A DNA stretch of 64,000 nt from an uncultured Gemmatimonadales bacterium (GTDB lineage: Bacteria > Gemmatimonadota > Gemmatimonadetes > Gemmatimonadales > GWC2-71-9). The position numbers and the translations under genes were made by a program. This document shows positions 2,995 through 53,629 of this stretch, piece by piece; positions within the stretch are counted from its first letter, which is position 1, and each line of letters begins with the position of its first letter. Where the stretch lies: positions 960,001 to 1,024,000 of the forward strand of contig CAVYSW010000003.1 of assembly GCA_963771275.1 (NCBI GenBank), in the 5' to 3' direction. Below the pieces are notes generated by a model. It had not been told where the DNA came from. It did no database searches and saw nothing but the letters and a program-made list of their open reading frames with translations.

Positions 2995-3007
2995 GGAGAA
3001 TCGATCC

Positions 3008-4495: not shown

Positions 4496-5334
4496 ATGGG
4501 AACGCTGTTGGCGGACGTGCGGCGGGCCTTGCGGGTACGTCATTGCGCCGCGCGCACCGAGGGGGTCTACGTCGGGTGGGTCGGGCGGCTGGTGCGGTTC
4601 CATGGGATGCGGCACCCGCGGGACCTGGGGCCGGAGGAGCTGGCCCGTTTTCTCTCCGATCTCGCGGTGCGCGGCGGCGTCAGCGCGTCCACGCAGAACC
4701 AGGCGCGCAGCGCGATCGTGTTTCTCTATCACGAGGTGCAGGGCCAGCCGCTTGCTCCGCTCGACGGGCTGGTGCGCGCCAGGCGACCGCCGCGGCTCCC
4801 GGTGGTCCTGACCCGCGCGGAGGTACAGGGAGTCCTGGGACATCTGGACGGCACGCCTCGGCTGGTGGCCGGCATGCTGTACGGCGGCGGGCTCCGCCTC
4901 GAGGCGCTGCGGTTGCGGGTCAAGGACCTCGAGGTCTCGTACGGCCCGCTGGTCGTCCGCGGGGGCATGTGCCGCTCCCGACGGCACTGCACCGGAAGTA
5001 CCCGCGGGCGGGGCGGGAATGGGTGTGGCAGTGGGTGTTCCCCGCCACCCGAGCCTACCGCGACCGGGTCACGCACGCGCGGCACCGCCATCACCTCCAT
5101 CCCACCGTCGTTCAGCGGGCGTTTCGCGCGGCGGTGCGAGAGGCCGGGTTGGCGAAGCGGGCGACGTGCCACAGTCTGCGTCACTCGTTCGCCACGCACC
5201 TCCTCGACGCGGGCCACGACATTCGGACCGTGCGGGAGCTGCTCGGCCACCGCGACGTGCGGACCACCATGATCTACACCCACGTCCTCAATCGGCCCGG
5301 ACTCGGCGTGCGGAGCCCGCTTGAGTCGTTTTGA
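4496..5334 (+). pseudogene. intI: Integron integrase with an internal deletion and frameshift near 4960
   Basis: First frame: STQNQA, RLPVVLT, LYGGGLR. Second frame: the integron-specific [24 protein letters not shown], then [15 protein letters not shown] and [11 protein letters not shown]. The segment carrying the catalytic Lys (KGxKDR) is missing. Confidence 0.9.
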
Positions 5335-23689: not shown

Positions 23690-23872
23690 TCACCCCGTGT
23701 TCGGGTAAGGAATCGGGATCGGTCCACCGGCCGTTGGGACTCTGGCTGGTGCGATCCGCTCCTCCAGCTCCTCGACACCCAACTCGATCGCTTCGGCGTC
23801 CTTGCCCGTGAGCGCCTTCACAGCCTGGCGCTGCGCGGGGGTGAGCTGCAGCGCAATCCGCTTCTCCGTCAT
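23690..23872 (-). CDS. 60-aa peptide, leader-plus-core-like (ELEERIAP ... GPIPIPYPNTG)
   Basis: GGGAG RBS 6 nt before ATG 23872; MTEKRIALQLTPAQRQAVKALTGKDAEAIELGVEELEERIAPARVPTAGGPIPIPYPNTG. Confidence 0.7.
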   Translation of the reverse strand: MTEKRIALQLTPAQRQAVKALTGKDAEAIELGVEELEERIAPARVPTAGGPIPIPYPNTG

Positions 23873-24122
23873 GCTGGGCTCCCGGTCGTGGGGTCCGCCG
23901 AAGCTAGATCGGAGCCGTGAAAGGCCCGTGAAACCCGGCTCGAGCGGGAAGGGCCGCGCGCACCGCGCGCCGTCCCGGACTGGTGCGGTCGACGCGCGAA
24001 CGCTATGAATGGTGGGCGCCATCCTGCGGGACGCTGCGGGGGACCCGGCATGCCTGGCGCCCCAGGACCCTCGCTGCGCTGGCTCGCCGGGCCGACGACC
24101 TGATCGGAGGAAGACGAACCCG

Positions 24123-27359: not shown

Positions 27360-27443
27360 TCTTCACTTTTCACTTTTCGTTCTGCGCTCTGCACACTTCA
27401 CGCTGGACGCTGCACCTTGCACGCTGCGCGCTGCACGCTCCAT
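27360..27443. repeat. Degenerate heptamer tandem array (12 units)
   Basis: TCTTCAC TTTTCAC TTTTCGT TCTGCGC TCTGCAC ACTTCAC GCTGGAC GCTGCAC CTTGCAC GCTGCGC GCTGCAC GCTCCAT. Confidence 0.8.
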
Positions 27444-28687
27444 CACCATCCCGCCCACAGCGCCGCGACCCCGACGAGCGTGATCACCACCAAGCCCCAC
27501 GACGCGACCCGCCGGAACGCCGGGGTGCCGACCCCGACGATCAGCCCCAGCTTGAACACGCCGTTGGCGATCGTACCGATCGCGACCGCCTTGGCGGCGA
27601 TGACCGCCGGCTCCACGGGGCCCGTGAGCCGTGCCATCGCGAGGGTGAGCGCGTCCAGGTCCGACAGCCCGACGAGTGCCGCCGACCAGAGCACCCCTCC
27701 GGTGCCGAACTGCTGCTGCACCAGGTAGACCACCATCAGGACGACCTGGAATGCGAGCGTCATCTTGATGGCCGACGCGAGCCGCAGCGGACTGCGCTGC
27801 CCGGTGATGGGGCTCGCCCCACCCCGCGCCTCCGCGCCCTGGGCGCGGCTCCGCAGCAGCGGCACCAGCACGAGCGCCGCGCCCACGAGGAACGGCGGCA
27901 CGATGTAGGGCAGCAACCGCAGCGCCATCGCCGGGCTCAGCACGAGCGAGACGAGCAGCACGCGGGGGAACAGCATCGTGCAGGCGCCCAGCACCCCAAT
28001 GCCGAGCGGCCGCGCCGCGCCGGGCTCCCCGCGGGAGAGCTGCGAGAACCTGAGCGACACCACGGTGGACGACACCATCCCGCCCAGCAGGCCCGTGACG
28101 CCGTAGCCCATGGTGTCCCCGACGGCGCGGCGCGCGATGTAACCCACGAAATCCATACCCGAGAACAGCAGCACCACGACCCACAGCGCGCGGGGCCGGA
28201 TGCCGCCCAGCGGGCCGTACGGCCCCTCGGGCAGCAGCGGCAGGATCACCAGGGCGAGTACCGCGAACTGGAGACCGGCGCGCAGCTCCTGCTCGCCGAT
28301 GCTCCGGATCGCGCCGTGGATCCGCGTCTTCTCCTGCAGCGCGAGCACGATCACCGCGGTGGCGCCCGCCGCGAGCGTCACGTAACCCATGCCGGCCGCC
28401 GCGCCGAGCGCGAGCACGGCCAGGGCGGCGGCCTCGGTCGTCCCCTCGATTCCCTCCGCGTCGCGCCGCGCCGCGATCACGTACGCGGCAACCGTGAGGG
28501 CCACGCCGCCGGCGAGCAGCACGAAGGCGACCGCCACGCGCCCCGTCTCGTGCAGCCAGCCGGCCACCCCGGCCAGGAGACCGAGTACCAGAAACGTGCG
28601 CACGCCCGCGAACCGCCCGTGCGGGCCGGACGCATGCCCCGACCACTCGCGCTCGATCCCCACCGCCAGCCCGGCGAGCGCGGCCAC
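27443..28687 (-). CDS. MgtC/SapB-family membrane protein with DUF4010 (start uncertain)
   Basis: GLAVGIEREWS...FAGVRTFLVLG, GTTEAAAL, ILPLLP, GGMVSST, GLSDLDA. Confidence 0.85.
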   Translation of the reverse strand: MAALAGLAVGIEREWSGHASGPHGRFAGVRTFLVLGLLAGVAGWLHETGRVAVAFVLLAGGVALTVAAYVIAARRDAEGIEGTTEAAALAVLALGAAAGMGYVTLAAGATAVIVLALQEKTRIHGAIRSIGEQELRAGLQFAVLALVILPLLPEGPYGPLGGIRPRALWVVVLLFSGMDFVGYIARRAVGDTMGYGVTGLLGGMVSSTVVSLRFSQLSRGEPGAARPLGIGVLGACTMLFPRVLLVSLVLSPAMALRLLPYIVPPFLVGAALVLVPLLRSRAQGAEARGGASPITGQRSPLRLASAIKMTLAFQVVLMVVYLVQQQFGTGGVLWSAALVGLSDLDALTLAMARLTGPVEPAVIAAKAVAIGTIANGVFKLGLIVGVGTPAFRRVASWGLVVITLVGVAALWAGW

Positions 28688-28720
28688 GGCGATGTCGATC
28701 GCTACCCTGACGTCAAGGCC

Positions 28721-28776
28721 GTTTCCCGTTTCCCGTCTCCCTCCAGCGATCCTTCAATCCTCAATCTGCCTTCTGC
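28721..28776. repeat. Heptamer tandem repeats
   Basis: GTTTCCC GTTTCCC GTCTCCC TCCAGCG ATCCTTC AATCCTC AATCTGC CTTCTGC. Confidence 0.6.
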
Positions 28777-28850
28777 ATTGAAACGGGTGCGCCCACGGCA
28801 CTGCGCATGACCGCGAACGCACCCTGAACGCGCGGGAAGATCTGGGAGCC

Positions 28851-29246
28851 TTAGATCTTCGCCGTCGCGACCCCGCGGACGATGTCGCTCTGGGAGATCA
28901 CTCCCACGAGCGCGCCCTTGTCCTCGACGAACAACCGGTGGACCTCCAGGTACAGCATCTGCTGGGCCGCTTCCTTGACATCCGTTTCCAGCCCGACCGT
29001 GGCCGGTCGCGGCGTCATCAGATCGCGCACCACCGCCCCGTCGAACAGATCCTCGCGCGACCTCGCCCCCTCGGCCGCGGCCTGCAGCACGTCCGTCGTG
29101 GACAGCACGCCGATCAGCCGATCGCGGCTGTCGACGACCGGGAGCGCGGAAATGTGCGACTCGATCATCACCGCCACGGCATCGGCGACCGTGACCTCCG
29201 GTTCCACCGACTTGAGGTCCGTGACCATCAATTCGGCAACCCGCAT
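28851..29246 (-). CDS. Stand-alone CBS-pair protein
   Basis: MRVAELM...ISALPVVD...IGVLSTTDV; VRDLMT...VHRLFVED...LVGVISQSDIV. Confidence 0.9.
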   Translation of the reverse strand: MRVAELMVTDLKSVEPEVTVADAVAVMIESHISALPVVDSRDRLIGVLSTTDVLQAAAEGARSREDLFDGAVVRDLMTPRPATVGLETDVKEAAQQMLYLEVHRLFVEDKGALVGVISQSDIVRGVATAKI

Positions 29247-29316
29247 GGCTCCCTCCTCGAGCGGCGCCGCGCGGCGCGTCTCCGGCAGTCCTCAAGCCGA
29301 CGATACCGGCGACTCG

Positions 29317-29343
29317 ATCAAGTTTGCGTGAAGCCCGGATGAA
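29317..29343 (-). promoter_or_regulatory. 11-bp-phased repeats upstream of the CBS gene
   Basis: Minus strand reads TTCAT-N6-TTCAC-N6-TTGAT. Confidence 0.45.
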
Positions 29344-29346
29344 CCA

Positions 29347-29583
29347 TTACTCCCGCGCGCGGTCCTCCTCGGTCGGCTCGAGATCCTCCTCGAAGACGCC
29401 GTGCGTGTAGGCGATCGCGCGCAGCGTCGGCTCGTCGAGCATGCGGAAGAACTCCGCCACTCCGGCCAGGCCGTCTGCGCCCCTGCTGGACGAGAACGTG
29501 CGGTCCAGCACCGCCACGATCCCCTGCACCATCTCTTCCTTGCCGGCGAACTCGGCCTCGGTCGGCTTCGGCACTCTCGTCAT
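29347..29583 (-). CDS. Small acidic hypothetical protein
   Basis: 78 aa, GGAGGG RBS, co-oriented between rtcB and the CBS gene. Confidence 0.6.
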   Translation of the reverse strand: MTRVPKPTEAEFAGKEEMVQGIVAVLDRTFSSSRGADGLAGVAEFFRMLDEPTLRAIAYTHGVFEEDLEPTEEDRARE

Positions 29584-29638
29584 GCGTCCCTCCGGCTAGG
29601 CTCTCTGAGGCAATATTCCTGCGTGGAACGCCGCGCCG

Positions 29639-31075
29639 CTACCCCTTGAGCACCCCCACCGGCACCAGCCGCGCCACCCTGCGGGCCAGCCGGGCGCGGT
29701 GCACGACCTCCACCACCCGGTCCACGTCCTTGTAGGCGTGCGGCGCCTCCTCGGCCAGCTCCTGGTTGCCGGCACCGCAGACCACGATGCCCCGCCCCTC
29801 CAGCGCCCGGCGCACCTCCTGTCCCGACTGGGCGAGCTTGGCGGCGCGCCGACTCATCGCGCGCCCGGCACCGTGGCAACAGCTCCCGAATGAGCGCGTC
29901 AACGCGTCGTCCGTGCCGGCGAGGACGTACGACGCGGTGCCCATGCTCCCGGGAATGAGGACGGGCTGGCCCACGGCGCGGTACCGCGCCGGCGTTTCCG
30001 GGTGCGCCGGGCCGAATGCCCGCGTCGCGCCTTTGCGGTGCACCACGAGGCGCTGCGTCCCGTGTTGCTCGAGCTTCGCCATGTTGTGGGTCACGTCGTA
30101 CACCATCCGCAGCTGCACCCCCTCACCCAGCACCGCCCCGAATGTCTCGCGCACCCGGTGCGCGATCGCCTGTCGGTTGGCGAACGCGAAATTCGCGGCG
30201 GCGGACATCGCCGCGAAGTAGCGTTGCCCTTCCGGTGAGCCGAATGGCGCGCAGGCAAGCTCGCGATCCGGCAACGTGATGTCGTGGGCCCGCATCACGC
30301 CGTCCATCAGCCGGACGTAGTCGGTGCACACCTGATGCCCGAGCCCGCGCGAGCCCGAGTGAATCAGCACGGTGCACTCGCCCACCCTGAGGCCCATCGC
30401 AGCGGCCGCGGCGTCGTCGTACAGCTCGGTGACCTCCTGGACCTCGACGAAGTGGTTGCCCGAGCCGAGCGTGCCAAGCTGGTCGTGACCCCGCTGCTTG
30501 GCGCGTGGCGATACCGCGTCGGGATCGGCGTCGGGCATCCGACCCGAGGCTTCGGTGAGATCCAGGTCCTCAGGGGTCGCGAGCCCGCGCCGCACGAGCG
30601 CGCCGCTGCCGTTGGCGAGCACGTCGTCGAGCTCGTCCGGTGTGCACGCCACCCGCCCGCCACGTCCCGCACCCGCCGGCACGGCGCGGCTCAGCTCGTG
30701 CATCAGATCGGAAAGCCGCGGGCGCACGTCCGCGGACGCGAGCCCGGTCGTCAGCAGCCGCACCCCGCAGTTGATGTCGTAGCCCACGCCGCCTGGTGAG
30801 ATCACGCCGTCCGCCGCGCGAAACGCCGCGACACCACCCACGGGAAAGCCATACCCCTCGTGCGCATCGGGCATCGCGAGCACGGCCTCGACCACGCCGG
30901 GCAGCGTGGCCACGTTGAGCAGCTGCTGCAGCGTCCGGTCGCGCCGGATCTGGTCCCACAGTGCGTCATCCGCATACACGCGTGCGGCCACCCGCATGTC
31001 GCTCCGGGCGCTCGCCGGCACTTCCACCAGCGTGTGGTCGAGTCGCGTGAACGGGTAGCTCGGCCCGGCGCTCAT
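29639..31075 (-). CDS. rtcB: RtcB RNA ligase
   Basis: MPDAHEGYGFPVGGV, GVGYDINCGVR, GTLGSGNHFVE, HSGSRGLG, HN, HRKGATRAF, PGSMG, HGAGR, EEAPHAYKDV. Confidence 0.96.
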   Translation of the reverse strand: MSAGPSYPFTRLDHTLVEVPASARSDMRVAARVYADDALWDQIRRDRTLQQLLNVATLPGVVEAVLAMPDAHEGYGFPVGGVAAFRAADGVISPGGVGYDINCGVRLLTTGLASADVRPRLSDLMHELSRAVPAGAGRGGRVACTPDELDDVLANGSGALVRRGLATPEDLDLTEASGRMPDADPDAVSPRAKQRGHDQLGTLGSGNHFVEVQEVTELYDDAAAAAMGLRVGECTVLIHSGSRGLGHQVCTDYVRLMDGVMRAHDITLPDRELACAPFGSPEGQRYFAAMSAAANFAFANRQAIAHRVRETFGAVLGEGVQLRMVYDVTHNMAKLEQHGTQRLVVHRKGATRAFGPAHPETPARYRAVGQPVLIPGSMGTASYVLAGTDDALTRSFGSCCHGAGRAMSRRAAKLAQSGQEVRRALEGRGIVVCGAGNQELAEEAPHAYKDVDRVVEVVHRARLARRVARLVPVGVLKG

Positions 31076-31500
31076 ACGTCGAGAATCACCTCCGCTTCCA
31101 CCATGCCGCGCACGGAGCGCACCGCGAGGCCGTGGAACGTCGCCCCCTTGATGCGACTGGGGTGCCCGGCGAGTCGTACGCCGGGGACGTGGATCGTCGC
31201 GTGCGTGGCGTCCGCCTCGACCACCGCGCCGTCACGGGCCGGCGCCCACCCGGCGGTCTCCGCCAGGAACAGGATCTCGTTCAGCAGATCCACCAGCAGC
31301 GCCTCGCGATCGGATGCCGCCAGCTCGAGCACGCGCGCGTCGGCCGCTCCGGCGCTCCCGGCCTCGTCCACCAGCAGCGCGCCAAGGGCCGTCACGGCCT
31401 CGCCCAGCAACGCCGCGAACGACGGCGCGCGGAGCCTGAGCCCCAGCTCGGCGGTGTGATCCACGAACTCGTGCGATGCCCGGGCGCGCTTCGTCATCAC
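31072..31500 (-). CDS. Archease (RtcB activator)
   Basis: FVDHTAELGL, LLVDLLNEIL, IKGATFHGL, VILDV C-terminus; 4-nt overlap with rtcB. Confidence 0.9.
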   Translation of the reverse strand: MMTKRARASHEFVDHTAELGLRLRAPSFAALLGEAVTALGALLVDEAGSAGAADARVLELAASDREALLVDLLNEILFLAETAGWAPARDGAVVEADATHATIHVPGVRLAGHPSRIKGATFHGLAVRSVRGMVEAEVILDV

Positions 31501-31758
31501 GGCACCCGCCGGGCTCGAGCCCGTCTCACCGGGCAGGCCACGCCGAGTAGCTGCCTTGGCACCATCCTACGTTCCCCGAACTGGGCAACCCACCGAATCC
31601 GGAATGAACCTGTCGGAACCAGCATTGTGCCCGCCGTCCCCGCACTTCATACTCTCGTTGGGCGGGGACCGGAAGGGGCATCGCCCCGCCAGACTGGATC
31701 GACCTGACGCCACGAGCCCGGCGCGGGCCCGATTCAGGGGCCGGCAAGGGAGCACATC

Positions 31759-32217
31759 ATGGATGAACGGCATTTCGCCGTCACGCTGTCCCGACGGCAC
31801 GACTATGAGTTTACGGTCGCCTTCGACGAGGGTGGCCCCACCGACCTGACGATCGACGAGCCGCCGCCGCTTGGGCTCGCGCACGGGCCCAGCGCCTCCC
31901 GGGTGCTCGGCGCCGCCGTGGGACATTGCCTCGGGTCGAGCCTGCTGTTCTGTCTCGGCAAGGCGCGGGTCGCCGTGGCCGATCTCGGCGTGCGGGTGGC
32001 CGGCACGATCGCGCGCAACGACGCCGGCCGGTTTCGCATCACGGACCTCAAGGTGATCCTCTCGCCCGCCGTCGCGCACGCGGACCGCGAGCGGATCCAC
32101 CGCTGCGTGACGCTGTTCGAGGATTTCTGCATCGTCACCGCCTCGGTGCGCCAGGGAATCCCGGTCCACGTGGAGGTGGCGCCGACCGAGGCCCAACGGG
32201 ACGCGGGGGCTGCGTGA
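31759..32217 (+). CDS. OsmC-family protein
   Basis: DEPPPLG...GPSASRVLGAAVGHCL...FEDFCIVTASVRQG (two conserved Cys). Confidence 0.88.
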   Translation: MDERHFAVTLSRRHDYEFTVAFDEGGPTDLTIDEPPPLGLAHGPSASRVLGAAVGHCLGSSLLFCLGKARVAVADLGVRVAGTIARNDAGRFRITDLKVILSPAVAHADRERIHRCVTLFEDFCIVTASVRQGIPVHVEVAPTEAQRDAGAA

Positions 32218-33146
32218 CGGAGCGCTCGGGGCGCCCCGTAGTCGTCGGCGTCGATGCCTCGCCCGCCGCGCGTGACGCGGCGCGCATGGGATGGGCGTTG
32301 GCGCAGGCGACCGGTGCCACGTGCCGGCTGGTGCACGCGACCCCGGAAGCCTGGACGGTGCCCACGGTCCCGCACAGCTTCGCGGCGCAGCCGGACGCCG
32401 TGAACGAGGCCAGCCGGCAGGCGGCGCGTGCCCTCGTGCTCGAAGTGCTCGCCGGCAACGTCCCGGACCACCTGGTGGCCGAGCTGGAGGTGCGCACCGG
32501 CCGCGCAGCGGCGGCACTGCGGGACGCGGCCGCCGAGCTCGCCGCCGAAGTTGTCGTCCTGGGCGGCAAGCACCACTCCGTGCTCGGCCGGTGGGTGGTC
32601 GGCAGCACCGCGCATACGCTCGTCCGCAGCCTCGACCTGCCGCTCCTGGTCACGGCGCATACGCCGCTTCCCGTCTTGCAGGTCGTGGCGGCGATCGATC
32701 TCTCCGACGCGGCGGCGCCCACGATCCGCGCCGCCGAGCGCTATGCGGGGCTGTTCGGTGCCGCGCTGCACGTGCTGCACGTGGTGGAGCCGCTCCCGCT
32801 GGTGCCCGACGCTCCGCTGCACTTCAACGACGAGGAGGTGTACCGGCGCTCGATCGAGCACCTGGAGCAGTACGTCTGGCCGCTCGTGACCTATCCCGGA
32901 GCGACCACGGGGGTAACCCGCGGCCCGGCCCGGGACGGTATCGCGGCCGAGGTGGCCGCGCGGGAGGCCCAGCTCGTCGTGCTCGGCTCGCACGGCAAGG
33001 GCTGGGCGGACCGCATTCTGATTGGCAGCGTGACGGAGCGCGTGCTCGACATGCCCCCCTGCTCGATGCTGATCGTCCCCGTCCCCGGTCCGGTAGGCCA
33101 CCGGAAGGCGCGGGACAAGCGAGCGGACCATGGACCGGTTCTTTAG
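32214..33146 (+). CDS. Tandem universal stress protein (two USP domains)
   Basis: GTG start overlaps the OsmC stop; VVVGVDAS...VVLGGKH...VVGSTA and VVAAIDLS...VVLGSHGKG...IGSVTERV. Confidence 0.9.
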   Translation: MTERSGRPVVVGVDASPAARDAARMGWALAQATGATCRLVHATPEAWTVPTVPHSFAAQPDAVNEASRQAARALVLEVLAGNVPDHLVAELEVRTGRAAAALRDAAAELAAEVVVLGGKHHSVLGRWVVGSTAHTLVRSLDLPLLVTAHTPLPVLQVVAAIDLSDAAAPTIRAAERYAGLFGAALHVLHVVEPLPLVPDAPLHFNDEEVYRRSIEHLEQYVWPLVTYPGATTGVTRGPARDGIAAEVAAREAQLVVLGSHGKGWADRILIGSVTERVLDMPPCSMLIVPVPGPVGHRKARDKRADHGPVL

Positions 33147-33220
33147 TCAGGGGTGGTCTTTAGGTTCTTCATTAACCAGCCCCTAGCTTCGAACCGTACC
33201 CGCAAGTAGTTTCATGGCAT

Positions 33221-34456
33221 ATGGTTGCGCGCCGGTCTCCAGCGGCAGACGCCGACCGACTCAAGCGGTTGGTTCAGGCGGGAATTCGCGTGACCGCCGA
33301 GCGCTCGCTCGATGCGGTGCTCCAGACCGTGGCGGACAGCGCGCGGGAGTTGACCGACGCGCGCTACGCGGCGTTGGGCGTGCTCGACCTCACTGGCACC
33401 GAGCTGAGCCGCTTCGTCACCAGTGGCATGCCCGCGGAGCAAGCGCGGCTGATCGGTGCGCCGCCCACCGGCAAGGGCGTGCTCGGCCTGCTCATCGGCC
33501 GACCCCGGCCGCTGCGGATCGAAGACCTCACCACGCATCCCCAGGCCCACGGCTTTCCGCCCGGGCACCCGCCGATGACGTCCTTCCTCGGCGTGCCGAT
33601 CATGGGCCGCAAGGGCCCGATCGGGAACCTCTACCTCACGGACAAGGCCTCGGCCAAGGGCTTCACCGCGGAGGACGAGACGATCGTGACGCTGCTCGCC
33701 GCGCAGGCGGCGGTCGCCCTCGAGAACGCGTCGTTGTACGAGGACAGCCAGCGGCTGATTCACGAAGTGAAGGCGATGCAGGCGGCGCGCGACCGGTTCT
33801 TCGCGATGATCAATCACGAGCTGCGGAACGCGCTCACTGCCGTGTACGGCTGGGCGGACCTGCTGCTCCGCAAGCTCGGGCCCGATGCGCCGCGCTCGGC
33901 CCGGGAGGTGTACGAGTCGGCCGAGCGGACGCTCGCCCTGCTGAACGACCTGCTCGACCTGAGCCGGCTCGAGGCGGAGCGGCTGCGTCCCGTGGTGCGC
34001 AGCACCGACGCCGGCACGCTGATGGAGGATGCGATCGCCGCGCTCGAGCCGTCGGCCGAGAAGCGCGCGATCCGCATCGAGACCGTCGGGGTGACCGACA
34101 TCGTCGCCTGCCAGACCGACCCCCAGCGGGTACGGCAGATCCTGATCAACCTGCTCAGCAACGCCGTGCGTCATAGCCCCGCCGCGGGGGTGGTCACCGT
34201 GGCGCTGCGAGCCGATGACCGGCGCCTGCGGTTCGATGTGATCGACCGGGGCCCGGGGATCCCGGCTGCCGAGCAGGCCCTGATCTTCGAAGCGTTCGCC
34301 CGCGCGGGGACGTCGGACGAGCGTGGGACCGGCCTGGGACTCACCCTCTCGCGTCAGCTCGCGCTCCTCCTGGGCGGCGATCTCCGTGTCATCAGCGAAG
34401 TTGGGACCGGCGCGACGTTCACGCTCGACATCCCTCGCTGGTACGGAACGAGTTAA
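33221..34456 (+). CDS. Soluble GAF sensor histidine kinase with a DosS/DosT-like GAF domain
   Basis: ARYAALGV...GKGVLGLLI...HPQAHGFPPGHPPMTSFLGVPI...GNLYLTDK; HisKA HELRNALT; NLLSNA, DRGPGI, GTGLGL. Confidence 0.88.
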   Translation: MVARRSPAADADRLKRLVQAGIRVTAERSLDAVLQTVADSARELTDARYAALGVLDLTGTELSRFVTSGMPAEQARLIGAPPTGKGVLGLLIGRPRPLRIEDLTTHPQAHGFPPGHPPMTSFLGVPIMGRKGPIGNLYLTDKASAKGFTAEDETIVTLLAAQAAVALENASLYEDSQRLIHEVKAMQAARDRFFAMINHELRNALTAVYGWADLLLRKLGPDAPRSAREVYESAERTLALLNDLLDLSRLEAERLRPVVRSTDAGTLMEDAIAALEPSAEKRAIRIETVGVTDIVACQTDPQRVRQILINLLSNAVRHSPAAGVVTVALRADDRRLRFDVIDRGPGIPAAEQALIFEAFARAGTSDERGTGLGLTLSRQLALLLGGDLRVISEVGTGATFTLDIPRWYGTS

Positions 34457-34490
34457 AGATCGTTTCACGGAACGTTTAAAGTCGGATCAC
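34453..34490 (+). promoter_or_regulatory. Four 11-bp-phased half-sites upstream of the response regulator
   Basis: TTAAA (34453), TTCAC (34464), TTTAA (34475), ATCAC (34486), followed by a TACCTT -10-like box. Confidence 0.55.
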
Positions 34491-34515
34491 CGAAGCCATC
34501 TACCTTAAGGAAACG

Positions 34516-35208
34516 ATGCGGATTCTCGTCGTGGAGGACGATCGTAAGGTCGCCGGCTTCATTGAAATGGGGCTGCGGGAGGAAGGCTACGCCGTCGATC
34601 TGGCGCGCGACGGCGACGAGGCCATCGTCCTGGCCCACGTGAACGACTACGACGCGATCCTGCTCGACTTGATGCTCCCCAAGAAGAACGGCCTCCAAGT
34701 CGCGGCCGAGCTGCGTCGCGAGGGTCGCACGACCCCGATCCTCATGCTCACCGCGCGTGATGCCACGGAAGACGTGGTGCGCGGGCTGGACGCGGGCGCC
34801 GACGACTATCTCGCGAAGCCGTTCAAGTTCGACGAGCTGCTGGCCCGTCTGCGGGCGCTGGTGCGCCGCGGCGGGGCGACGCGGGTCGAGCGTCTGACCG
34901 CCGGCCCGCTCGAGCTCGACCGCCTGAAACACCAGGCGTACGCCGGGGGCAAGGCGCTCGACCTCACGCCCCGGGAGTTCCAGCTGCTCGAGCATTTCAT
35001 GATGCACAAGGACGACGTCGTCCGCCGCACCGAGTTGCTCGAGAAGGTCTGGGACATGCACTTCGACCCCGAGAGCAACGTGGTGGACGTGCATGTGGGC
35101 AACTTGCGGCGCAAGCTCCGCGAAGCCGGGTTCGAGGACCTCATCAAGACCGTGCGCGGTGTGGGGTTCCGACTGAACGGCTCCGGTACGACGAGTCCCG
35201 CCTCCTGA
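34516..35208 (+). CDS. OmpR/PhoB-family response regulator (CusR/CzcR-like)
   Basis: MRILVVEDD, LLDLMLP, LTARD, GADDYLAKPF, LTPREFQLL, SNVVDVHVGNLRRK, TVRGVGF. Confidence 0.95.
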   Translation: MRILVVEDDRKVAGFIEMGLREEGYAVDLARDGDEAIVLAHVNDYDAILLDLMLPKKNGLQVAAELRREGRTTPILMLTARDATEDVVRGLDAGADDYLAKPFKFDELLARLRALVRRGGATRVERLTAGPLELDRLKHQAYAGGKALDLTPREFQLLEHFMMHKDDVVRRTELLEKVWDMHFDPESNVVDVHVGNLRRKLREAGFEDLIKTVRGVGFRLNGSGTTSPAS

Positions 35209-35215
35209 GCAGCTG

Positions 35216-36616
35216 ATGCAGTCCCTGCGCCGCACGCTCTCCGTGCGGTTTTCGCTCACCATGTTCGCCGCACTCCTGGTGATCGCCCTGTGGGCGTACC
35301 TGGGAGCGCGGCGCGTGCTGCGGGAGGAGCTCGACCGCGGCCTGGCGGCGTCCGCCCACCTCGAGTCCGCGGTGCTCGCCGCCGGCTACCGCATCCCGCC
35401 GCTCTCGAGCCAGCGCGACTCCGAGGAGTTCGTGGAGGCGGTGAACCGCTACGTCGTGGTGCGCGACGCCGCGGGACGGGTGCTCGCCACCAACACGCCG
35501 CTCGCCGCCGGCCTGCCGTACGACCCGGCGAAGCTCGCCATCGCCGTGCAGGGAGGCACGGCCTGGGAGACGGCGACCTGGGGACCGGGCAGCGTGCGCT
35601 CCGTGTATCTCGGGGTCGCGCACGAGCGGGCGGGCGATGCCCGGGTAGTTCAGGTGAGCGCGTCGCTCGCGCCGATCGACACCGAGCGCCGCCAGATGCT
35701 GCTGCTCATGCTGGGCACGGTCGTGCTCGGCACCGTCGCGGCGATGCTGGGCGGGGGGTGGCTGGCGCGCTCGGCGGTGGCTCCCGTGGCCGAGATCGCC
35801 GCCCAGACGAACGCCGTCGCGGCGGGGGCGGTGGGGCAGCGCATCACGGCGCATGCGGAAGTGGAGGAGTTCAACGGGCTCGTCGCCGTGCTGAACCGCA
35901 TGCTCGAGCGGCTCGACCGTGGCCTGCTGGCCCAGCGACGGATCATCGCGGACGTGGGCCACGACCTCCGCACTCCGCTCACGGCCATGCGCGGCGAGGC
36001 CGAGGTGGCGCTGCGCAACCCGCGCTCGCCGGAGCAGTATCAGCGGATCCTCGCCAGCCTGCTCGAGGAGATCGACCACCTCGGCACGATCAGCGACACG
36101 CTGCTGCTGCTCGCGCGCATCGAGGCGGGCGACCTCGCGCTGCACTGCCTGGACACCGACGTGGGCGACCTCGTGACGCGCGCCGTCCAGCGGGTACGCC
36201 AGCGGGCGACCGATCATCCCTTCACCTACGCACCCACCACCGACGGCCTCGGGTCGGCGGCGCTCGACGGGCGGATGGTCTCGCTCGTGCTCGACCACCT
36301 GCTGGACAACGCGGTGCGGCACACGCCGCCCGGCACCCCGGTCACCGTGTCCGTGCAGGCCGACGCCGATGCGGCCAGTGTCACCGTGGAGGACGCGGGA
36401 CCGGGCGTTTCGGATGACATCCTGCCGCACCTCTTCGAGCGGTTCTACCGGGGCGACGCCGCGCGCGGGCGGGGCGCCGGGGCGGGCCTCGGTCTCACCG
36501 TGGCCGCCGCGATCGTGCACGCGCACAGCGGCACGATCTCCGCCAGCCGGGCCGAGAGCGGCGGGCTCCGGGTGACCGTCCGCCTGCCGCGCTGCGACGG
36601 GCCGGGGACGGCCTGA
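35216..36616 (+). CDS. Membrane sensor histidine kinase with HAMP domain
   Basis: Two TM helices, HDLRTPLT, LLDNAVRHT, DAGPG, FERFYRGD, GAGLGL. Confidence 0.92.
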   Translation: MQSLRRTLSVRFSLTMFAALLVIALWAYLGARRVLREELDRGLAASAHLESAVLAAGYRIPPLSSQRDSEEFVEAVNRYVVVRDAAGRVLATNTPLAAGLPYDPAKLAIAVQGGTAWETATWGPGSVRSVYLGVAHERAGDARVVQVSASLAPIDTERRQMLLLMLGTVVLGTVAAMLGGGWLARSAVAPVAEIAAQTNAVAAGAVGQRITAHAEVEEFNGLVAVLNRMLERLDRGLLAQRRIIADVGHDLRTPLTAMRGEAEVALRNPRSPEQYQRILASLLEEIDHLGTISDTLLLLARIEAGDLALHCLDTDVGDLVTRAVQRVRQRATDHPFTYAPTTDGLGSAALDGRMVSLVLDHLLDNAVRHTPPGTPVTVSVQADADAASVTVEDAGPGVSDDILPHLFERFYRGDAARGRGAGAGLGLTVAAAIVHAHSGTISASRAESGGLRVTVRLPRCDGPGTA

Positions 36617-36623
36617 GCCCAGT

Positions 36624-36661
36624 CTTACCACTTTTTCACGGGCCCTTACTGAGGATTTCAC
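36624..36661 (+). promoter_or_regulatory. Helically phased direct repeats upstream of the DUF2892/cytochrome-porin operon
   Basis: CTTAC (36624), TTCAC (36635), CTTAC (36645), TTCAC (36657). Confidence 0.5.
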
Positions 36662-36707
36662 CCGGCCCGCATGAACTTGCGGGTCGACGCAGGCATTCGG
36701 AGTCCGC

Positions 36708-36935
36708 ATGGCCAGGAACGTGAGCTCGCTTGACGCGTGCATCCGCGGCATCGTCGCCGTGGGTCTCGTCGTGTTCGGCGTGGCCTCTCACGGGACCGAG
36801 ATCCTCTCGTTCGGCGCCGTGCTCGTGGGCATCGTCCTGATGGCCACGGCGCTCACGCGCGAGTGCCCGTTCTATCGCGCCTTCCGCCTCCACACCCAGC
36901 GCCCGGGCACGGCCCCGGGATCCCGCCGGGACTGA
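36708..36935 (+). CDS. DUF2892 (YgaP-like) small membrane protein
   Basis: NVSSLDACIR, two TM helices, TALTRECPFYRAF. Confidence 0.8.
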   Translation: MARNVSSLDACIRGIVAVGLVVFGVASHGTEILSFGAVLVGIVLMATALTRECPFYRAFRLHTQRPGTAPGSRRD

Positions 36936-36961
36936 GCCCGGCTTTCTCGCAAGGAGCCCTC

Positions 36962-38161
36962 ATGCGGACAGTGCTCATCACTGCCCTGGCCGCGGCCTCG
37001 CTCGCCGCCGCCGCGACCCCGGCACAGGCGATCCCCGCGTTCGCGCGCAAGTACGCCGTGAGCTGCAACCTGTGCCACAACCCGATCCCGCGACTGACCG
37101 CGTTCGGGCAGAGCTTCGCCGCGAACGGGTACCGCATGGCCTCGCAGGAGCCGGCGCGCGACACGGTCGATACCGGAGATCCGCTCCTCACCCTCCTGCG
37201 CAGCACGCCCATCGCCCTGCGCCTCGACGCGTACGCCCAGGCCTATACCGAGGGCAACGCGGTAACCGACTTCGCAACGCCGTACGGGTTGAAGCTGCTC
37301 TCGGGCGGCGCGATCTCGTCGCAGCTCTCCTACTACCTCTATTTCTTCCTGCTCGAGCGGGGCGAGATCGGCGGGATCGAGGACGCCTTCGTCTCCGTGA
37401 ACGACATCGGCAACATCCCGCTCGACCTCACGGTCGGCCAGTTCCAGGTATCGGACCCGATCTTCAAGCGCGAGCTGCGCCTCGAGATCGACGACTACGC
37501 GATGTACCGCGTCCACGTGGGCGCCGAGCCCACCGACCTGACGTACGACCGCGGACTACTGGGATCGGTGGACGTCGCGGGCTTCACGCTCAGCGCCGAA
37601 GTGATCAACGGCACGGGGAAACAGCCCGCGCAGGCGAACATGCGGTTCGACAACGACAACTTCAAGAACCTGTTCGGCCACCTGCGCCGCGCGATCACGC
37701 CCAGCGTCCAGCTCGGCGCCATGGGCTACTACGGCAAGACGCGCGGCACCACCGAAGGCTCTCGGGACACGATCGTCAACCGGGTGTGGATGGTGGGCGG
37801 CGACCTCACCGTCCGGGCGGGGCCCGTGGAGCTCAACGCGCAGGTGATTCACCGCGAGGACGACGCGCCGCTGTTCACCGCCGGGGACTCGACCGTGACC
37901 ACCAACGGCGGGTTCGCGGAGCTCGTCGTGACCCCGCCGCGGAGCCGCTGGTACGGCTACGCGCTGTACAACTACATTGACGCGAGCGCGCCGCTGCTCG
38001 ACGTCGGGCTCGGCGGCCCCGCCGCCCTCAAGCGCTACCAGACGGCGGCGAGCGGTCTGGGGTACCTGATGCGCCGCAACGTCCGGGTTTACGGCGAGGC
38101 AACCTACGACATCGAGCAGAAGAACGGGAGATTCAGCCTCGGGTTGACGGCCGGATTCTGA
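36962..38161 (+). CDS. cyc2: Cyc2-like fused cytochrome c-porin
   Basis: Signal peptide (AQA), then IPAFARKYAVSCNLCHNPIPRLTAFGQSFAANGY, matching the Cyc2 PxFAR...CxxCH..P.L..FG..F...GY pattern. The rest is amphipathic beta-strand and ends in Phe. Confidence 0.75.
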   Translation: MRTVLITALAAASLAAAATPAQAIPAFARKYAVSCNLCHNPIPRLTAFGQSFAANGYRMASQEPARDTVDTGDPLLTLLRSTPIALRLDAYAQAYTEGNAVTDFATPYGLKLLSGGAISSQLSYYLYFFLLERGEIGGIEDAFVSVNDIGNIPLDLTVGQFQVSDPIFKRELRLEIDDYAMYRVHVGAEPTDLTYDRGLLGSVDVAGFTLSAEVINGTGKQPAQANMRFDNDNFKNLFGHLRRAITPSVQLGAMGYYGKTRGTTEGSRDTIVNRVWMVGGDLTVRAGPVELNAQVIHREDDAPLFTAGDSTVTTNGGFAELVVTPPRSRWYGYALYNYIDASAPLLDVGLGGPAALKRYQTAASGLGYLMRRNVRVYGEATYDIEQKNGRFSLGLTAGF

Positions 38162-38192
38162 CCGGCAGCAGCCACCCTGCCGGCGTCTTTCC

Positions 38193-38223
38193 AACGGGAT
38201 GGCCTCCGCGAGGCCATCCCGTT
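38193..38223. terminator. 14-bp perfect hairpin between the cyc2-like gene and cytochrome c
   Basis: AACGGGATGGCCTC-CGC-GAGGCCATCCCGTT; weak U-tail. Confidence 0.55.
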
Positions 38224-38280
38224 ACATCTTCATGTTCCTGGCCGGGTGTGCCCGGCCGTTCAACCCACTCCGAGGTGATC

Positions 38281-38670
38281 ATGCGCTCGCTGGTATTCGT
38301 TCTCGTGGCCGCGCTCGCGGTACCCGTTGCCGCCGCGGCACAGGCAAAGGACTCGCTGCCGCCGGGTGTGACGTCCGCGATGCTCAAGGAAGGGAAGACG
38401 CTGTTCGCCGGCGCGGGCATCTGCGCGGCCTGCCACGGCACGGACGCCAAGGGCATGCCGGGGATGGGGGCGAATCTCACGGACAACAAGTGGCTGCACA
38501 GCGACGGCTCGTACGACGCGATCGTGAAGCAGATCATGACCGGCGTCTCCTCCAGCGAGTCCTCGTCGGGGGCCGCGATGCCGCCGAAGGGCGGCAGCGC
38601 GCTGACCGACGCGCAGGTGAAGGCGGTTGCCGCCTACGTGTGGAGCCTCAGCCACCCCGGGACGAAGTAA
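38281..38670 (+). CDS. Periplasmic monoheme cytochrome c (CcoP/cbb3-subunit III-like fold)
   Basis: Sec signal, CAACHG, GANLTDNKWLH, AMPPKGG (axial Met). Confidence 0.9.
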   Translation: MRSLVFVLVAALAVPVAAAAQAKDSLPPGVTSAMLKEGKTLFAGAGICAACHGTDAKGMPGMGANLTDNKWLHSDGSYDAIVKQIMTGVSSSESSSGAAMPPKGGSALTDAQVKAVAAYVWSLSHPGTK

Positions 38671-38673
38671 CGC

Positions 38674-39780
38674 ATGATGGACGCCCGGCGGCGGCGCGTC
38701 GCGCTCACCGCGGCGCTGCTCGCCGTCTGCGCCCGACCCGCCGCGGCGCAGATCCAGCTGCCCGAAGGTGTCTCCGTGCGGCTGTCCGCGCTGCTGGAGA
38801 CCCAGTTCAACACGACATCGGTGGACTCCGCCGCCGGCGCGGCCGTGCCCGCGAGCGAGTTCGCGATCCGGCGGGCGCGCGTCACCTTCGACCTGAAGGT
38901 CGGTGACTTCCTCTCGGCGCGCTTCGAGCCCGATTACAACATCTACTCGAGCAGCACGGGCGCGGGGACCTTCTCCCTCCGCGACGGTTGGGTGCGGGCG
39001 ACGTTCGGTCCCGCGCTGCGGGCGACGCTGGGGCAGTTCAAGCGCCCGTTCGATCTCTTCCAGCTCACCGCCGCGAGTCAGCTGCTGGTGATCGAGCGCA
39101 CCGGAGCCGTGCGGGGCACGGCGTGCGGGGCGCTGCCGTCGGTGTGCTCGTTCAGCACCCTCACCGCGGGCCTGCTCTACGCCGACCGGGACGTCGGCGT
39201 CATGCTGGACGGCGAAGTGGTCGCCGGGCGAATCCGCTACGCCGCCGCGCTCACCAACGGCCGGCCGCCCAACCAGCGGGAGAACAGCAGCAACAAGTCA
39301 TACACCGGCCGAGTGTCGGTCCGCCCGGCGAAGGACGTCCTGCTGAGCGCGAACGCCGCCTACAAGGACTACGCGCACCCGACGAGTGGCGCGCAGACGT
39401 TCGCCACGGCGTGGGGCGCCGATGTTGAGCTCGGCAGCTACACTCGCGGACTGCACGTGCAGGCGGGGCTCGTGGGGGGCGACGACTGGCTGGTGGCAGC
39501 CGGTCCCCAGGACGTCGCACGGTTCTTCGCGATGCAGGCGATCGTGACGTACAAGGCGCCGGTGCGCCACAAGCGGATCACGAGCATCGAGCCGGTCGTC
39601 CGAGCGAGTTGGGCCGACCCGGACACCGACACGGCCGGCGACGACGGCTGGCTGCTCACCCCCGGGCTCAACGTGTATCTTGGGGGCCGGAACGTGCTGC
39701 TCACCGACGTCGACGTGTGGACCCCACATGTGGGGGCAACGCAGTATTCACTCAAGACGCAGTGGAATTTCTACTTCTAA
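38674..39780 (+). CDS. Outer-membrane porin (OprO/P-like family)
   Basis: Signal peptide, FAIRRARV, GQFKRPF, RDVGVML, C-terminal WNFYF. Confidence 0.8.
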   Translation: MMDARRRRVALTAALLAVCARPAAAQIQLPEGVSVRLSALLETQFNTTSVDSAAGAAVPASEFAIRRARVTFDLKVGDFLSARFEPDYNIYSSSTGAGTFSLRDGWVRATFGPALRATLGQFKRPFDLFQLTAASQLLVIERTGAVRGTACGALPSVCSFSTLTAGLLYADRDVGVMLDGEVVAGRIRYAAALTNGRPPNQRENSSNKSYTGRVSVRPAKDVLLSANAAYKDYAHPTSGAQTFATAWGADVELGSYTRGLHVQAGLVGGDDWLVAAGPQDVARFFAMQAIVTYKAPVRHKRITSIEPVVRASWADPDTDTAGDDGWLLTPGLNVYLGGRNVLLTDVDVWTPHVGATQYSLKTQWNFYF

Positions 39781-39802
39781 CCTTCAGACGAGGCGACACA
39801 TC

Positions 39803-40252
39803 ATGAGTAGGCGCAGTCTTGCGGCATCGTCGGTCCTGCTCGCACTCGCGTTCAGTGCGTGCAAGGGTGGGGAGAAGGCTCAGGAGCAGCAGGCGGCTCC
39901 GGAAGCGGCGGCGCCATCACAGACCGCGGCCATCCCCGCCGGCGAGCTTCCGCCCGGCGTCACCCAGGCCTTGGTGGACGAGGGCAACACGCTGTTCCAC
40001 GGGGCCGGGCTCTGCGCGACGTGTCACGGCGCCGACGGCAAGGGCGTACCGGGACTCGGCGCCAATCTCACCGACAGCACGTGGCTCCACAGCGATGGCT
40101 CGTACGACGCCATCGTGAAGCAGGTCATCGAGGGCGTGCCGGCGAACGTCTCCACCTCGGGGGCCGCGATGCCGGCCAAGGGTGGCTCGAGCCTCACGGA
40201 CGACCAGGTCAAGGCGGTCGCCTCGTACGTCTGGAGCCTGAGCAAGAAGTAG
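39803..40252 (+). CDS. Lipoprotein monoheme cytochrome c, paralog of 38281-38670
   Basis: Lipobox FSAC, Ala/Gln linker, CATCHG, GANLTDSTWLHSDGSYDAIVKQ, AMPAKGG. Confidence 0.9.
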   Translation: MSRRSLAASSVLLALAFSACKGGEKAQEQQAAPEAAAPSQTAAIPAGELPPGVTQALVDEGNTLFHGAGLCATCHGADGKGVPGLGANLTDSTWLHSDGSYDAIVKQVIEGVPANVSTSGAAMPAKGGSSLTDDQVKAVASYVWSLSKK

Positions 40253-40335: not shown

Positions 40336-41550
40336 TCAGCTGCCGCACACCTCCGTGGCGTTGTACCGCGTGAAACCCATCGGGCCCCATTGCAGGAACA
40401 TGGCGGACCGACCACCCTCGGCGCTCCGCACGGGCAGCAGCGTCTGGACGAAGTGCCGCGACGTGCTCTCCATGCGGTGCCACAGCCTCGCCGACTGCTC
40501 TTGCCGGACGATCGCCGCCTGCGGCACGCCGCTCGGCTCGCCCGTCAGCGGATTCAGCGGCGTTACCGTGAGCCGGCCGTCGGCGCGGAAGTCGCGCCGG
40601 TACTCGCCGCTCCGCGTGAGCACGTCGGTCTGCCAGAGGCTCACCGACCCCTGGATGTCGATGTACTTGTCGCCGTTCGGATTGCAGATCGGCTTCGGCG
40701 CCACGATGTCGTACGGCAGCGTGATGCGCTGCTCGAACGCGCCCGGCTGCAGGGGCACCGCGGCGGCAACCTGCAGGATCGTGGCGTTCCCGTCGTTCGG
40801 GATCCCAACAGGATCGGTCGCGACGTACCCCGGATTCCCCGTCACGATGTACTTGAGGTCGCCGGGCAGGGCGTTGAACAGCTGCGGAATGATCGTCCGG
40901 AACGTCGGCGCATCCGTGATGGGACCCGTCCCGCCCGCGGGTCCACCAAGCCCGCCGCGGATGAAGTCGGCGAAGACCAGCGTCTCCGCCAGCTCCCAGG
41001 AGAGCACCTGGTGGTCCGCCGTGCCCGGAATCAGGATCTCGAAATGCGCGTTGCCGACGGTATGGTCGCCGGCCGGGAACAGGCGCAGGTGCACGCGTGC
41101 GGGCTGGTAGTCACCACAGCTCAGCTGGATCACCGATCCCGCCCACTTGTCGCTCGCGAACGTCACCTGCTCGTCGCCGCCGAGCGCATCCTGCCACGTA
41201 CAGGTGAACGCCGCGAGGGGCGCGAGGGCCGGATCGATGGCGCCGAGCCCGCTGCGGTCGCCGTTGAGGCTCATCAGCGCCGCGCGGATGTTCAGCGGGC
41301 CCGCGTTGCCCGTGAAGATCAGGTTGATGGGATCCTGATTGTCTGACTGATAGTGGTTGAGGGTGTAGGGAAGGAACTCGATGCCGTCTGCCATCACCAA
41401 ACCCGCGGGCGCCGGATACGTCGCCCGATGCAGCTCGGCGTCGGGCGCGTCCGTCGCCACCGGGTTGCGGTCGTCGGTACAACCGATCGAGACCGCCAAC
41501 GTCAGGCCGGCCACCACGCCGACCGCCCGTCCTGCCAGATTGCCACGCAT
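40336..41550 (-). CDS. Hypothetical lipoprotein
   Basis: GGAGGAGG RBS, lipobox SIGC, DPINLIF and RVHLRLF segments; family not recognised. Confidence 0.7.
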   Translation of the reverse strand: MRGNLAGRAVGVVAGLTLAVSIGCTDDRNPVATDAPDAELHRATYPAPAGLVMADGIEFLPYTLNHYQSDNQDPINLIFTGNAGPLNIRAALMSLNGDRSGLGAIDPALAPLAAFTCTWQDALGGDEQVTFASDKWAGSVIQLSCGDYQPARVHLRLFPAGDHTVGNAHFEILIPGTADHQVLSWELAETLVFADFIRGGLGGPAGGTGPITDAPTFRTIIPQLFNALPGDLKYIVTGNPGYVATDPVGIPNDGNATILQVAAAVPLQPGAFEQRITLPYDIVAPKPICNPNGDKYIDIQGSVSLWQTDVLTRSGEYRRDFRADGRLTVTPLNPLTGEPSGVPQAAIVRQEQSARLWHRMESTSRHFVQTLLPVRSAEGGRSAMFLQWGPMGFTRYNATEVCGS

Positions 41551-41594: not shown

Positions 41595-41628
41595 ACGCTA
41601 CGGAAGGACCGTCAAGCGGGCGTCAAGC
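41595..41628 (-). promoter_or_regulatory. SARP-type 11-bp-spaced direct repeat plus -10 box
   Basis: Minus strand reads GCTTGACG-CCC-GCTTGACG-N9-TAGCGT, upstream of the lipoprotein gene. Confidence 0.6.
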
Positions 41629-53555: not shown

Positions 53556-53557
53556 AG

Positions 53558-53629
<72 letters not shown>

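Follow-up and report, generated by a model that had tools for sequence, protein, structure and literature searches.

A gene island at 27443–40252 of the Gemmatimonadales contig CAVYSW010000003.1 (assembly GCA_963771275.1; coordinates are those of the 64,000-nt stretch analysed, hereafter the window) carries a soluble sensor kinase directly followed by an OmpR/PhoB-family response regulator. Sequence comparisons make it probable, in our view, that this locus encodes a two-component switch responding to low oxygen (O2/NO/CO) in one large Gemmatimonadales family, and that a few of its targets lie next to it. What is conserved is the pair of kinase and OmpR-type regulator; taken as a whole, the island is mostly a genus-level feature. 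The genome that holds the island (3.86 Mb) was compared with six other genomes of the same genus (G001–G006), and a phylum survey covered 105 genomes of its family and 115 other Gemmatimonadota genomes. Kinase loci were tallied at 56 places, with three duplicates and two fragments excluded.

The sensor kinase and the adjacent regulator

The kinase (33221–34456, + strand, 411 amino acids) has one GAF domain (His116, Tyr138 and Gly53), a HisKA domain (His199) and a HATPase domain. Against the PDB, the GAF domain matched DosT (2vzw) and DosS GAF-A at E values of 5e-40 to 6e-38, with the next match at 2.5e-7. One study gives DosS His149 as the heme ligand and Tyr171 as the residue that tells gases apart, with a glycine at DosT position 85 proposed to permit a stable oxy complex (PMC4082495). 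His116 and Tyr138 of the kinase align with DosS H149 and Y171, and both are present in 29/29 aligned homologues. Gly53 falls at the DosT G85 position, which is Gly in 28/28 aligned homologues; a cruder check on further kinase loci found some with other letters there.

DosS itself has a HisKA_3-type core, and its partner DosR is NarL-type. The initial annotation had called the island's kinase DosS-like, which describes its heme pocket well (GAF match at 5e-40, His116, Tyr138) and its family poorly. Instead of two tandem GAF domains it has one, and instead of a HisKA_3 core with a NarL-type partner it has a HisKA core (PF00512) with an OmpR-type neighbour; because of the single GAF and the HisKA core, we place it outside the DosS family. 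Membership was rejected on these two features and on a separate clade of Gemmatimonadota GAF domains, which group together with support 100/98 in a tree of 78 rows (two duplicate loci left out). The actinobacterial relatives retrieved mostly have HisKA_3 motifs and NarL-type neighbours, with a few GAF-HisKA proteins among them. The closest full-length relatives in a species-genome scan were on 32 Gemmatimonadota contigs, which places the window in that phylum. Judged by these residues and domains, the kinase probably works like DosT while standing outside the DosS/DosT family.

A full-length kinase was found in 84/105 genomes of the family versus 5/115 other genomes of the phylum. The regulator lies directly downstream of it in 50 of the 56 loci, is divergent in two, absent in three and untestable in one; the pairing of an OmpR-type regulator with the sensor, as first proposed, thus recurs in 52/56 loci, and this regulator is the kinase's likely partner. 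The rest of the island is far less constant. Within the fetched flank, rtcB occurs in 3/56 kinase loci, all of the island's own genus, and cyc2 in 5/56, so the idea that the whole island is a conserved unit, co-located in relatives, was rejected. The gene order is nevertheless non-random, because the same arrangement recurs on single contigs in G001 and G005 and, split across contig ends, in G002 and G006. In G004 the island is reduced, lacking cyc2, the porin, CBS and MgtC genes, and G003 gave a fragment only. Outside the genus, archease-rtcB and the kinase gene point away from each other in G086, with no cyc2 there; in G106 and G023 cyc2 stays near the kinase and rtcB lies elsewhere.

Neighbours of the kinase vary within one pool. 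Universal stress proteins (USPs) are found at 35 loci, P-type ATPases at 24, CBS proteins at 18, a small COX2/COX1 pair with an HPLVYFW motif at 12–13, NirK-like oxidases at 9, cbb3 oxidases at 8 and nosZ clusters at 5; SulP, Hsp20, nitroreductase, phosphoribosyltransferase (PRTase), M50-CBS, Balon, HPF, acetate kinase and HemN-like genes also occur. We take the HPLVYFW pair to be a B-family-type oxidase, and the NirK-like label is likewise our presumption from motifs.

A predicted direct-repeat operator and regulon

Because the recognition helix of the regulator is near-invariant among homologues, we searched for a shared operator. Gibbs sampling of 18 regulator promoters, all from other genera, gave the motif TGAAG-N5-CTTCA-N7-TT-N9-TTCA, mostly ending 23–27 nt before the start codon. 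On the island's own genome, the best match to this matrix was the regulator's own promoter (34453–34489, + strand) at 31.7 bits, with the next match at 17.3; this predicted operator has four units and is followed, after 11 nt, by a −10-like hexamer, TACCTT. The same 11-bp repeat emerged from an unseeded expectation-maximization search of regions upstream of genes other than the regulator. In such regions TTCA-N7-TTCA occurs 60 times, and each other spacing from 3 to 13 at most 4 times. A TAnnnT hexamer lies 12 nt past the last repeat in 39/156 sites, with at most 5 at any other offset; a repeat followed by a hexamer in this way is the layout of a PhoB-type activator site. The operator is likely an 11-bp direct repeat of (C/T)TTCA, to judge from these motif counts (matches are called boxes below). 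A Fnr-type palindrome was rejected, the repeat being direct with an 11-bp period.

A second, seeded model was trained without regulator promoters. At >10 bits it recovered 36/40 held-out regulator promoters and, among upstream regions that were themselves training data, 33/38 for USPs, 9/11 for CBS, 6/9 for NirK-like, 2/4 for nosZ, 2/3 for ccoNO, 0/10 for COX2 and 28/185 for unlabelled regions. In the island it scored 18.6 bits before the CBS gene (29317–29355, − strand; TTCA repeats at 11 bp, then a TATCGT −10-like hexamer), 14.9 before the ygaP-cytochrome-porin operon (36612–36672, + strand; overlapping windows of 11.7–14.9 bits), 13.0 before the regulator and a weak 6.3 before the kinase. 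The site before archease-rtcB (31593–31620, − strand) is irregular and weak at 6.2 bits, a score reached by 6.7% of genes and not significant alone, and osmC has none. The initial annotation had linked sensing to RNA repair and outer-membrane electron transfer; the CBS and ygaP-cyc2 genes do share the regulator's predicted operator, whereas archease-rtcB and osmC-USP-kinase lend that link little. Orthologous sites in the genus score 11.8–19.4 bits before CBS (3/3 loci) and 16.8–21.7 before ygaP-cyc2 (5/5). Three other genomes of the genus have 10.8–13.5 bits before osmC, and two have 13.9–15.0 before the USP gene. Two more box-like sites flank the island, at 23917–23944 (− strand, 16.2 bits) before a 60-amino-acid open reading frame (ORF; 23690–23872), and at 41600–41627 (− strand, 14.0 bits) before a 404-amino-acid lipoprotein gene (40336–41550).

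A strict form of the pattern was present in 62/84 family genomes with the kinase and 4/21 without it, and outside the family in 14/115, where a reversed control gave 13; these are hand counts over genomes that include non-independent kin and some that also gave training loci. They bear on the idea of chance accretion, in which some other factor (another OmpR-family protein or a sigma factor) binds the repeat and neither half of the cluster has to do with the kinase. The genome does encode four other OmpR-family regulators, gene content round the pair is highly variable, and G040, G051 and G058 have several boxes with the kinase undetected. However, the genome's top site is the regulator's own promoter, conserved across genera; the upstream regions of the other four regulators, where scored, reach at most 7.1 bits; and box presence within the family tracks kinase presence. 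We regard chance accretion as very improbable.

The main alternative is a metal system. The regulator (34516–35208, + strand) and a second, membrane-bound HAMP-HisKA kinase that follows it (35216–36616, + strand) find their best matches in the heavy-metal models TIGR01387 and TIGR01386. This could make the locus a CusRS/CzcRS-like copper system, in which the regulator answers mainly to the membrane kinase, copper supply or detoxification serves oxidases, NosZ and NirK, and the GAF kinase is secondary. P-type ATPases, ZIP transporters and copper enzymes are frequent neighbours. Paralogous regulator-kinase pairs in two genomes (L189, G028:C217; L192, G030:C10) lack the GAF kinase and have regulators 65–68% identical; they precede efflux-type operons boxed at 20.7–21.4 bits. 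The G028 operon is of the OEP-CusB-AcrB/CusA family, with a distant Cyc2-type gene after the efflux genes. These paralogous pairs suggest CusRS-like ancestry, and the second kinase may still feed another signal. Both scores, however, fall under the model cut-offs (229.9 bits against 279.2 for the regulator, 216.4 against 292.55 for the second kinase), and neither protein was assigned to CusRS/CzcRS. The second kinase stands beside the regulator in 19/56 loci, the next gene being another one in 30 of the 50 loci with the regulator directly downstream, and it was not found in nine genomes that all have kinase and regulator and are 88–100% complete (G008, G011, G016, G021–G024, G036 and G038). 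The boxed islands, moreover, hold mainly USP, hibernation, fermentation and anaerobic respiration genes. A copper system seems unlikely to us.

In the island's own genome, 44/1850 upstream regions exceed 12 bits, compared with a mean of 9 and a maximum of 19 for shuffled matrices. Heme-c (CxxCH) or ferredoxin-type 4Fe-4S motifs occur in 13/44 boxed operons versus 72/1806 others (p 3e-8; shuffled mean 2.5, maximum 4). Pfam searches of the 71 genes behind 39 top sites found 8- and 19-heme cytochromes, two NrfC/NrfD sets, two 2-oxoacid:ferredoxin oxidoreductase operons, FeoB, ferritin, CcmEF and pyruvate formate-lyase; unrelated enzymes turned up there too. The 19-heme cytochrome gene is divergent from an NrfC/NrfD operon (G000:C3:285549–289548), boxed on both sides (20.7 and 14.6 bits). 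A nosZ query of this genome gave no match, with controls equally silent. The norC-norB pair at 2308–4372 of the window is of the cytochrome c-dependent NO reductase type; norCB and cydAB were rejected as boxed targets, since their upstream regions were scored and had no box.

These two negatives pull in different directions for a general stress, stationary-phase or NO/redox regulon, in which the heme GAF would respond to NO, CO or redox state and not to the O2 level, with general survival genes as its targets. The unboxed cydAB of this genome suits it, and published sources report that DosS and DosT bind NO and CO, with DosS a proposed redox sensor (PMC4082495), and that general stress operons include USP, OsmC, BON, Hsp20, Balon and RtcB (PMC10901736). 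The norCB genes, on the other hand, would be expected in an NO regulon and are unboxed; glycine at the same place as in DosT speaks for a stable oxy complex; and the pair is found clustered with genes for high-affinity oxidases, nosZ and HemN-like genes. On balance we find a stress or NO regulon improbable as well.

Box-dense islands in relatives resemble the DosR and lxa gene sets. In G133, G139 and G150, picked for their clustering of strict matches and absent from training, stretches of 75–110 kb round the kinase have boxes before 16/49, 26/53 and 20/50 upstream regions, where shuffled matrices average <1. All three contain many USPs, Hsp20, PRTase and Balon; nitroreductase, HPF and archease-rtcB are in G133 and G150, and boxed nosZ is in G133 and G139. 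Acetate kinase, alcohol dehydrogenase, BON proteins, a HemN-like enzyme, hydrogenase and cbb3 oxidase also occur. The overlap with the DosR gene set pointed out in the initial annotation is therefore present in the island and larger in these relatives. Within the box-dense island of G139, very large multiheme cytochromes with 7 to 23 CxxCH motifs are encoded at G139:C5:280001–320000 (L208–L209).

The family holds two RtcB clades, at about 60–75% and 51–57% identity to the island's RtcB, and the box tends to go with the closer clade only. In other genera, close-clade archease-rtcB mostly lies at a distance from the kinase, and 10/19 of its loci have a site >12 bits no more than 400 nt away; for the distant clade the figure is 0/13, and the background is 1.3% per 200 nt; the tally covers loci for part of 43 matches, with locus L232 excluded. 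Archease-rtcB would accordingly count as a predicted regulon member in many relatives, and its membership in the island's own genome is doubtful. On this reading, the island is a selection of regulon members particular to one lineage.

Several observations weigh against a low-oxygen switch acting through this operator. For many of the 44 predicted targets a connection with oxygen is not apparent (examples are thiolase, glutamine synthetase and dCTP deaminase), and in this genome no box precedes osmC-USP-kinase, cydAB, norCB, the aa3 oxidase region, the second tandem USP or the Balon homologue. Archease sites in the genus reach at most 8.8 bits, with 0/6 >12. G040, 87% complete, has 6 strict boxes and no regulator was found in it; strict boxes without a detected kinase also occur in G051 and G058. 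The whole-genome spacing count is non-specific, with 25 at the box spacing versus 65 at another, and own-genome upstream spacing counts peak also at 3 and 10. Related genomes are not independent samples, and some of those searched had supplied training loci. Finally, the box alone leaves the signal unnamed, because the efflux-linked paralogous pairs without a GAF kinase carry the same box.

Genes of the island

All 15 named genes of the island are intact ORFs, and their positions and families were confirmed as first read. Leftward (− strand) run an MgtC-DUF4010 membrane protein (27443–28687; PF02308, PF13194), a stand-alone tandem CBS protein (28851–29246; two PF00571 domains), a 78-amino-acid ORF (29347–29583), RtcB RNA ligase of the archease-linked type (29639–31075; PF01139, E 3e-168) and archease (31072–31500; PF01951). 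The MgtC-DUF4010 gene is probably co-transcribed with the CBS gene; the order CBS then MgtC is kept in G001 and G002. RtcB has the catalytic-type motifs for what we take to be metal binding and guanylylation, and with archease adjacent it fits an RtcB-archease RNA ligase. The 78-amino-acid ORF is conserved in relatives and has no known family, and an ESM Atlas query with it returned none. It sits after rtcB in the island's genus and adjoins Balon/baeRF10 in G133 and G150 (L204, L214). Its product is a candidate small partner in ribosome hibernation or RNA repair, judged by this context.

Rightward (+ strand), an OsmC-like protein with four Cys (31759–32217; no box upstream here) and a tandem USP (32214–33146; two PF00582 domains) precede the kinase. 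Beyond the second kinase lie a YgaP-like (DUF2892) small membrane protein (36708–36935), a Cyc2-type fused monoheme cytochrome-porin (36962–38161), a periplasmic monoheme cytochrome c (38281–38670, start read from sequence), an OprO/P-family porin (38674–39780) and a second monoheme cytochrome c with a lipoprotein-type signal (39803–40252). The two cytochromes c are paralogues (74% identity over 99 amino acids). Rfam and ARAGORN scans found a tRNA-Cys at 53557–53629 as the sole match in the window and none in the island itself.

The cytochrome-porin had no Pfam match, and the ESM Atlas gave no family. It has a signal peptide, PAFARKY, CNLCH at 35 and a length of 399 amino acids, and so satisfies the sequence rule for Cyc2 (PxFAR[QK][TY], CxxCH, at least 365 amino acids) given in PMC8406198. 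The predicted fold, built from a 120-sequence alignment, is a porin barrel with a predicted local distance difference test score (pLDDT) of 84 (single-sequence folding reached 30). Its best match is OprP (Z 24.5, root-mean-square deviation 3.2, 297 aligned residues), and the model combines the barrel with an N-terminal heme domain. The protein thus shares the motif pair, length and OprP-like barrel of the Cyc2 family, within which the same source flags the function of divergent homologues as uncertain (PMC8406198). The island gene sits under a predicted low-O2 promoter; an unlinked cyc2 of G022 has a box at 23.7 bits. One cyc2 orthologue of the genus (L027, G001:C61:833–2004) is possibly frameshifted, since its match is divided between two frames and a stop falls around residue 365.

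Elsewhere in the window, 4969–5334 encodes the C-terminal piece of a tyrosine integrase (PF00589) that by eye resembles integron integrases; short genes of lower GC content follow it as far as about 11300. The segment 24477–25442 holds what looks like the remnant of a restriction enzyme, with a Schlafen/AlbA_2 domain and apparently spread over two frames.

A possible low-oxygen switch and its relation to known systems

The switch we favour could work as follows. The kinase would bind heme in its DosT-like GAF domain through His116, with Tyr138 reading the distal ligand. By analogy with DosT, bound O2 would keep it off, and the O2-free or NO/CO-bound form would autophosphorylate at His199. Phosphotransfer to the OmpR-type regulator is suggested by the same analogy and by the gene pairing. 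The regulator would then bind the 11-bp (C/T)TTCA direct repeats, which end 11–12 nt before TAnnnT, and may activate from the −35 position in a PhoB-like manner. It would raise its own expression together with CBS-MgtC and the ygaP-cytochrome-porin operon in the island; elsewhere in the genome, multiheme cytochromes and NrfCD-type and ferredoxin-linked enzymes; and in relatives, USPs, ribosome-hibernation and RNA-repair genes and some nosZ and nitrite-reductase genes. The second kinase probably passes another, periplasmic, signal to the same regulator.

None of the three Crp/Fnr proteins of this genome has a Cys cluster, so the kinase-regulator pair could be the main O2 sensor. A bolder reading is worth stating, tentatively and with the balance leaning slightly against it: the pair may act as master switch for low oxygen in a large family, mostly uncultured and here lacking a Cys-type FNR, with a DosT-type heme sensor put onto a CusRS-like OmpR system, and with one direct-repeat operator coupling dormancy (ribosome hibernation, RNA repair) to N2O/nitrite respiration and outer-membrane electron transfer.

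Among known systems, mycobacterial DosS/DosT-DosR (DevS/DevR) shares the heme-type GAF with proximal His and distal Tyr, and possibly two kinases per regulator. Rv2630 of that system is an archease and Rv2626c a CBS protein. The target families shared with the DosR regulon are USP, CBS, RtcB, M50 protease, nitroreductase, Hsp20, PRTase, HPF and Balon; that regulon includes Rv2623–Rv2631, and Rv2631 is RtcB (PMC5309233). The differences here are the single GAF of its own clade, the HisKA core, the OmpR-type regulator and the presence of an outer-membrane cytochrome-porin and N2O/nitrite respiration among predicted targets. As in the DosR system, one operator, here a predicted one, precedes USP, CBS, RtcB and other genes, with a different, direct-repeat motif and a weak site before the island's own rtcB. 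CusRS/CzcRS shares the best NCBIfam models for the regulator and second kinase and the boxed efflux operons of the paralogues; here scores are below cut-offs, the conserved partner is a soluble heme-GAF kinase and the targets are not mainly metal efflux. FixL is a heme-PAS sensor and FixJ is not OmpR-type; together they control cbb3 oxidase and fixGHI genes. The likeness to FixL-FixJ is a soluble heme O2-sensing kinase (PMC8534201) and, in relatives here, linkage to cbb3 oxidase and fixGHI.

The initial annotation had known of no description of the combination. The gene set is not new, because comparable sets are described outside Actinobacteria: the lxa locus of Burkholderia cenocepacia is a 50-gene low-O2 island (PMC3721108), and Balon operons with RtcB, OsmC and Hsp20 occur across phyla (PMC10901736; PMC6514570). 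The lxa locus shares USPs, alpha-crystallin, nitroreductase, sulfate transporter, cation ATPase, acetate kinase, a single promoter motif and variable gene order. Its motif is TGA-N6-TCA (Fnr/Anr-like), whereas here the 11-bp direct repeat goes with a heme-GAF kinase as candidate sensor. The new part is the OmpR-type regulator with its predicted operator, which were not found in the mostly open literature searched. In its accessible part, a review of kinase sensing cites DosT as a heme-GAF example and does not list a heme-GAF kinase paired with an OmpR-type regulator (PMC8534201). A Gemmatimonadota genome survey names PhoR-PhoB alone in the two-component passage we could access (PMC10581226). 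Searches of the literature, mostly open papers without supplements, returned none on rtcB + archease + DosR, on archease + RtcB + USP + CBS or on a Gemmatimonadota DosS heme GAF, and nothing on oxygen sensing in Gemmatimonadota.

If the bolder reading is right, the pair would be a heme-based O2-sensing wiring distinct from both FixLJ and DosST-DosR, and its operator would read out the hypoxia regulon, nosZ included, from any genome of the family. With sensor, regulator and predicted operator named, regulon membership becomes predictable in metagenome bins. Judging by the comparison, unrelated regulators seem able to take over a dormancy-type gene set: DosR, an Fnr-like factor in lxa, and an OmpR type here. 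A further suggestion is that finding a Cyc2-type gene in a heterotroph may point to a low-oxygen programme and not to iron oxidation. Members of the Gemmatimonadota occur commonly in soils and sediments, and nosZ genes are numerous among them, which makes them candidate N2O sinks in oxic-anoxic shifts (PMC10581226).

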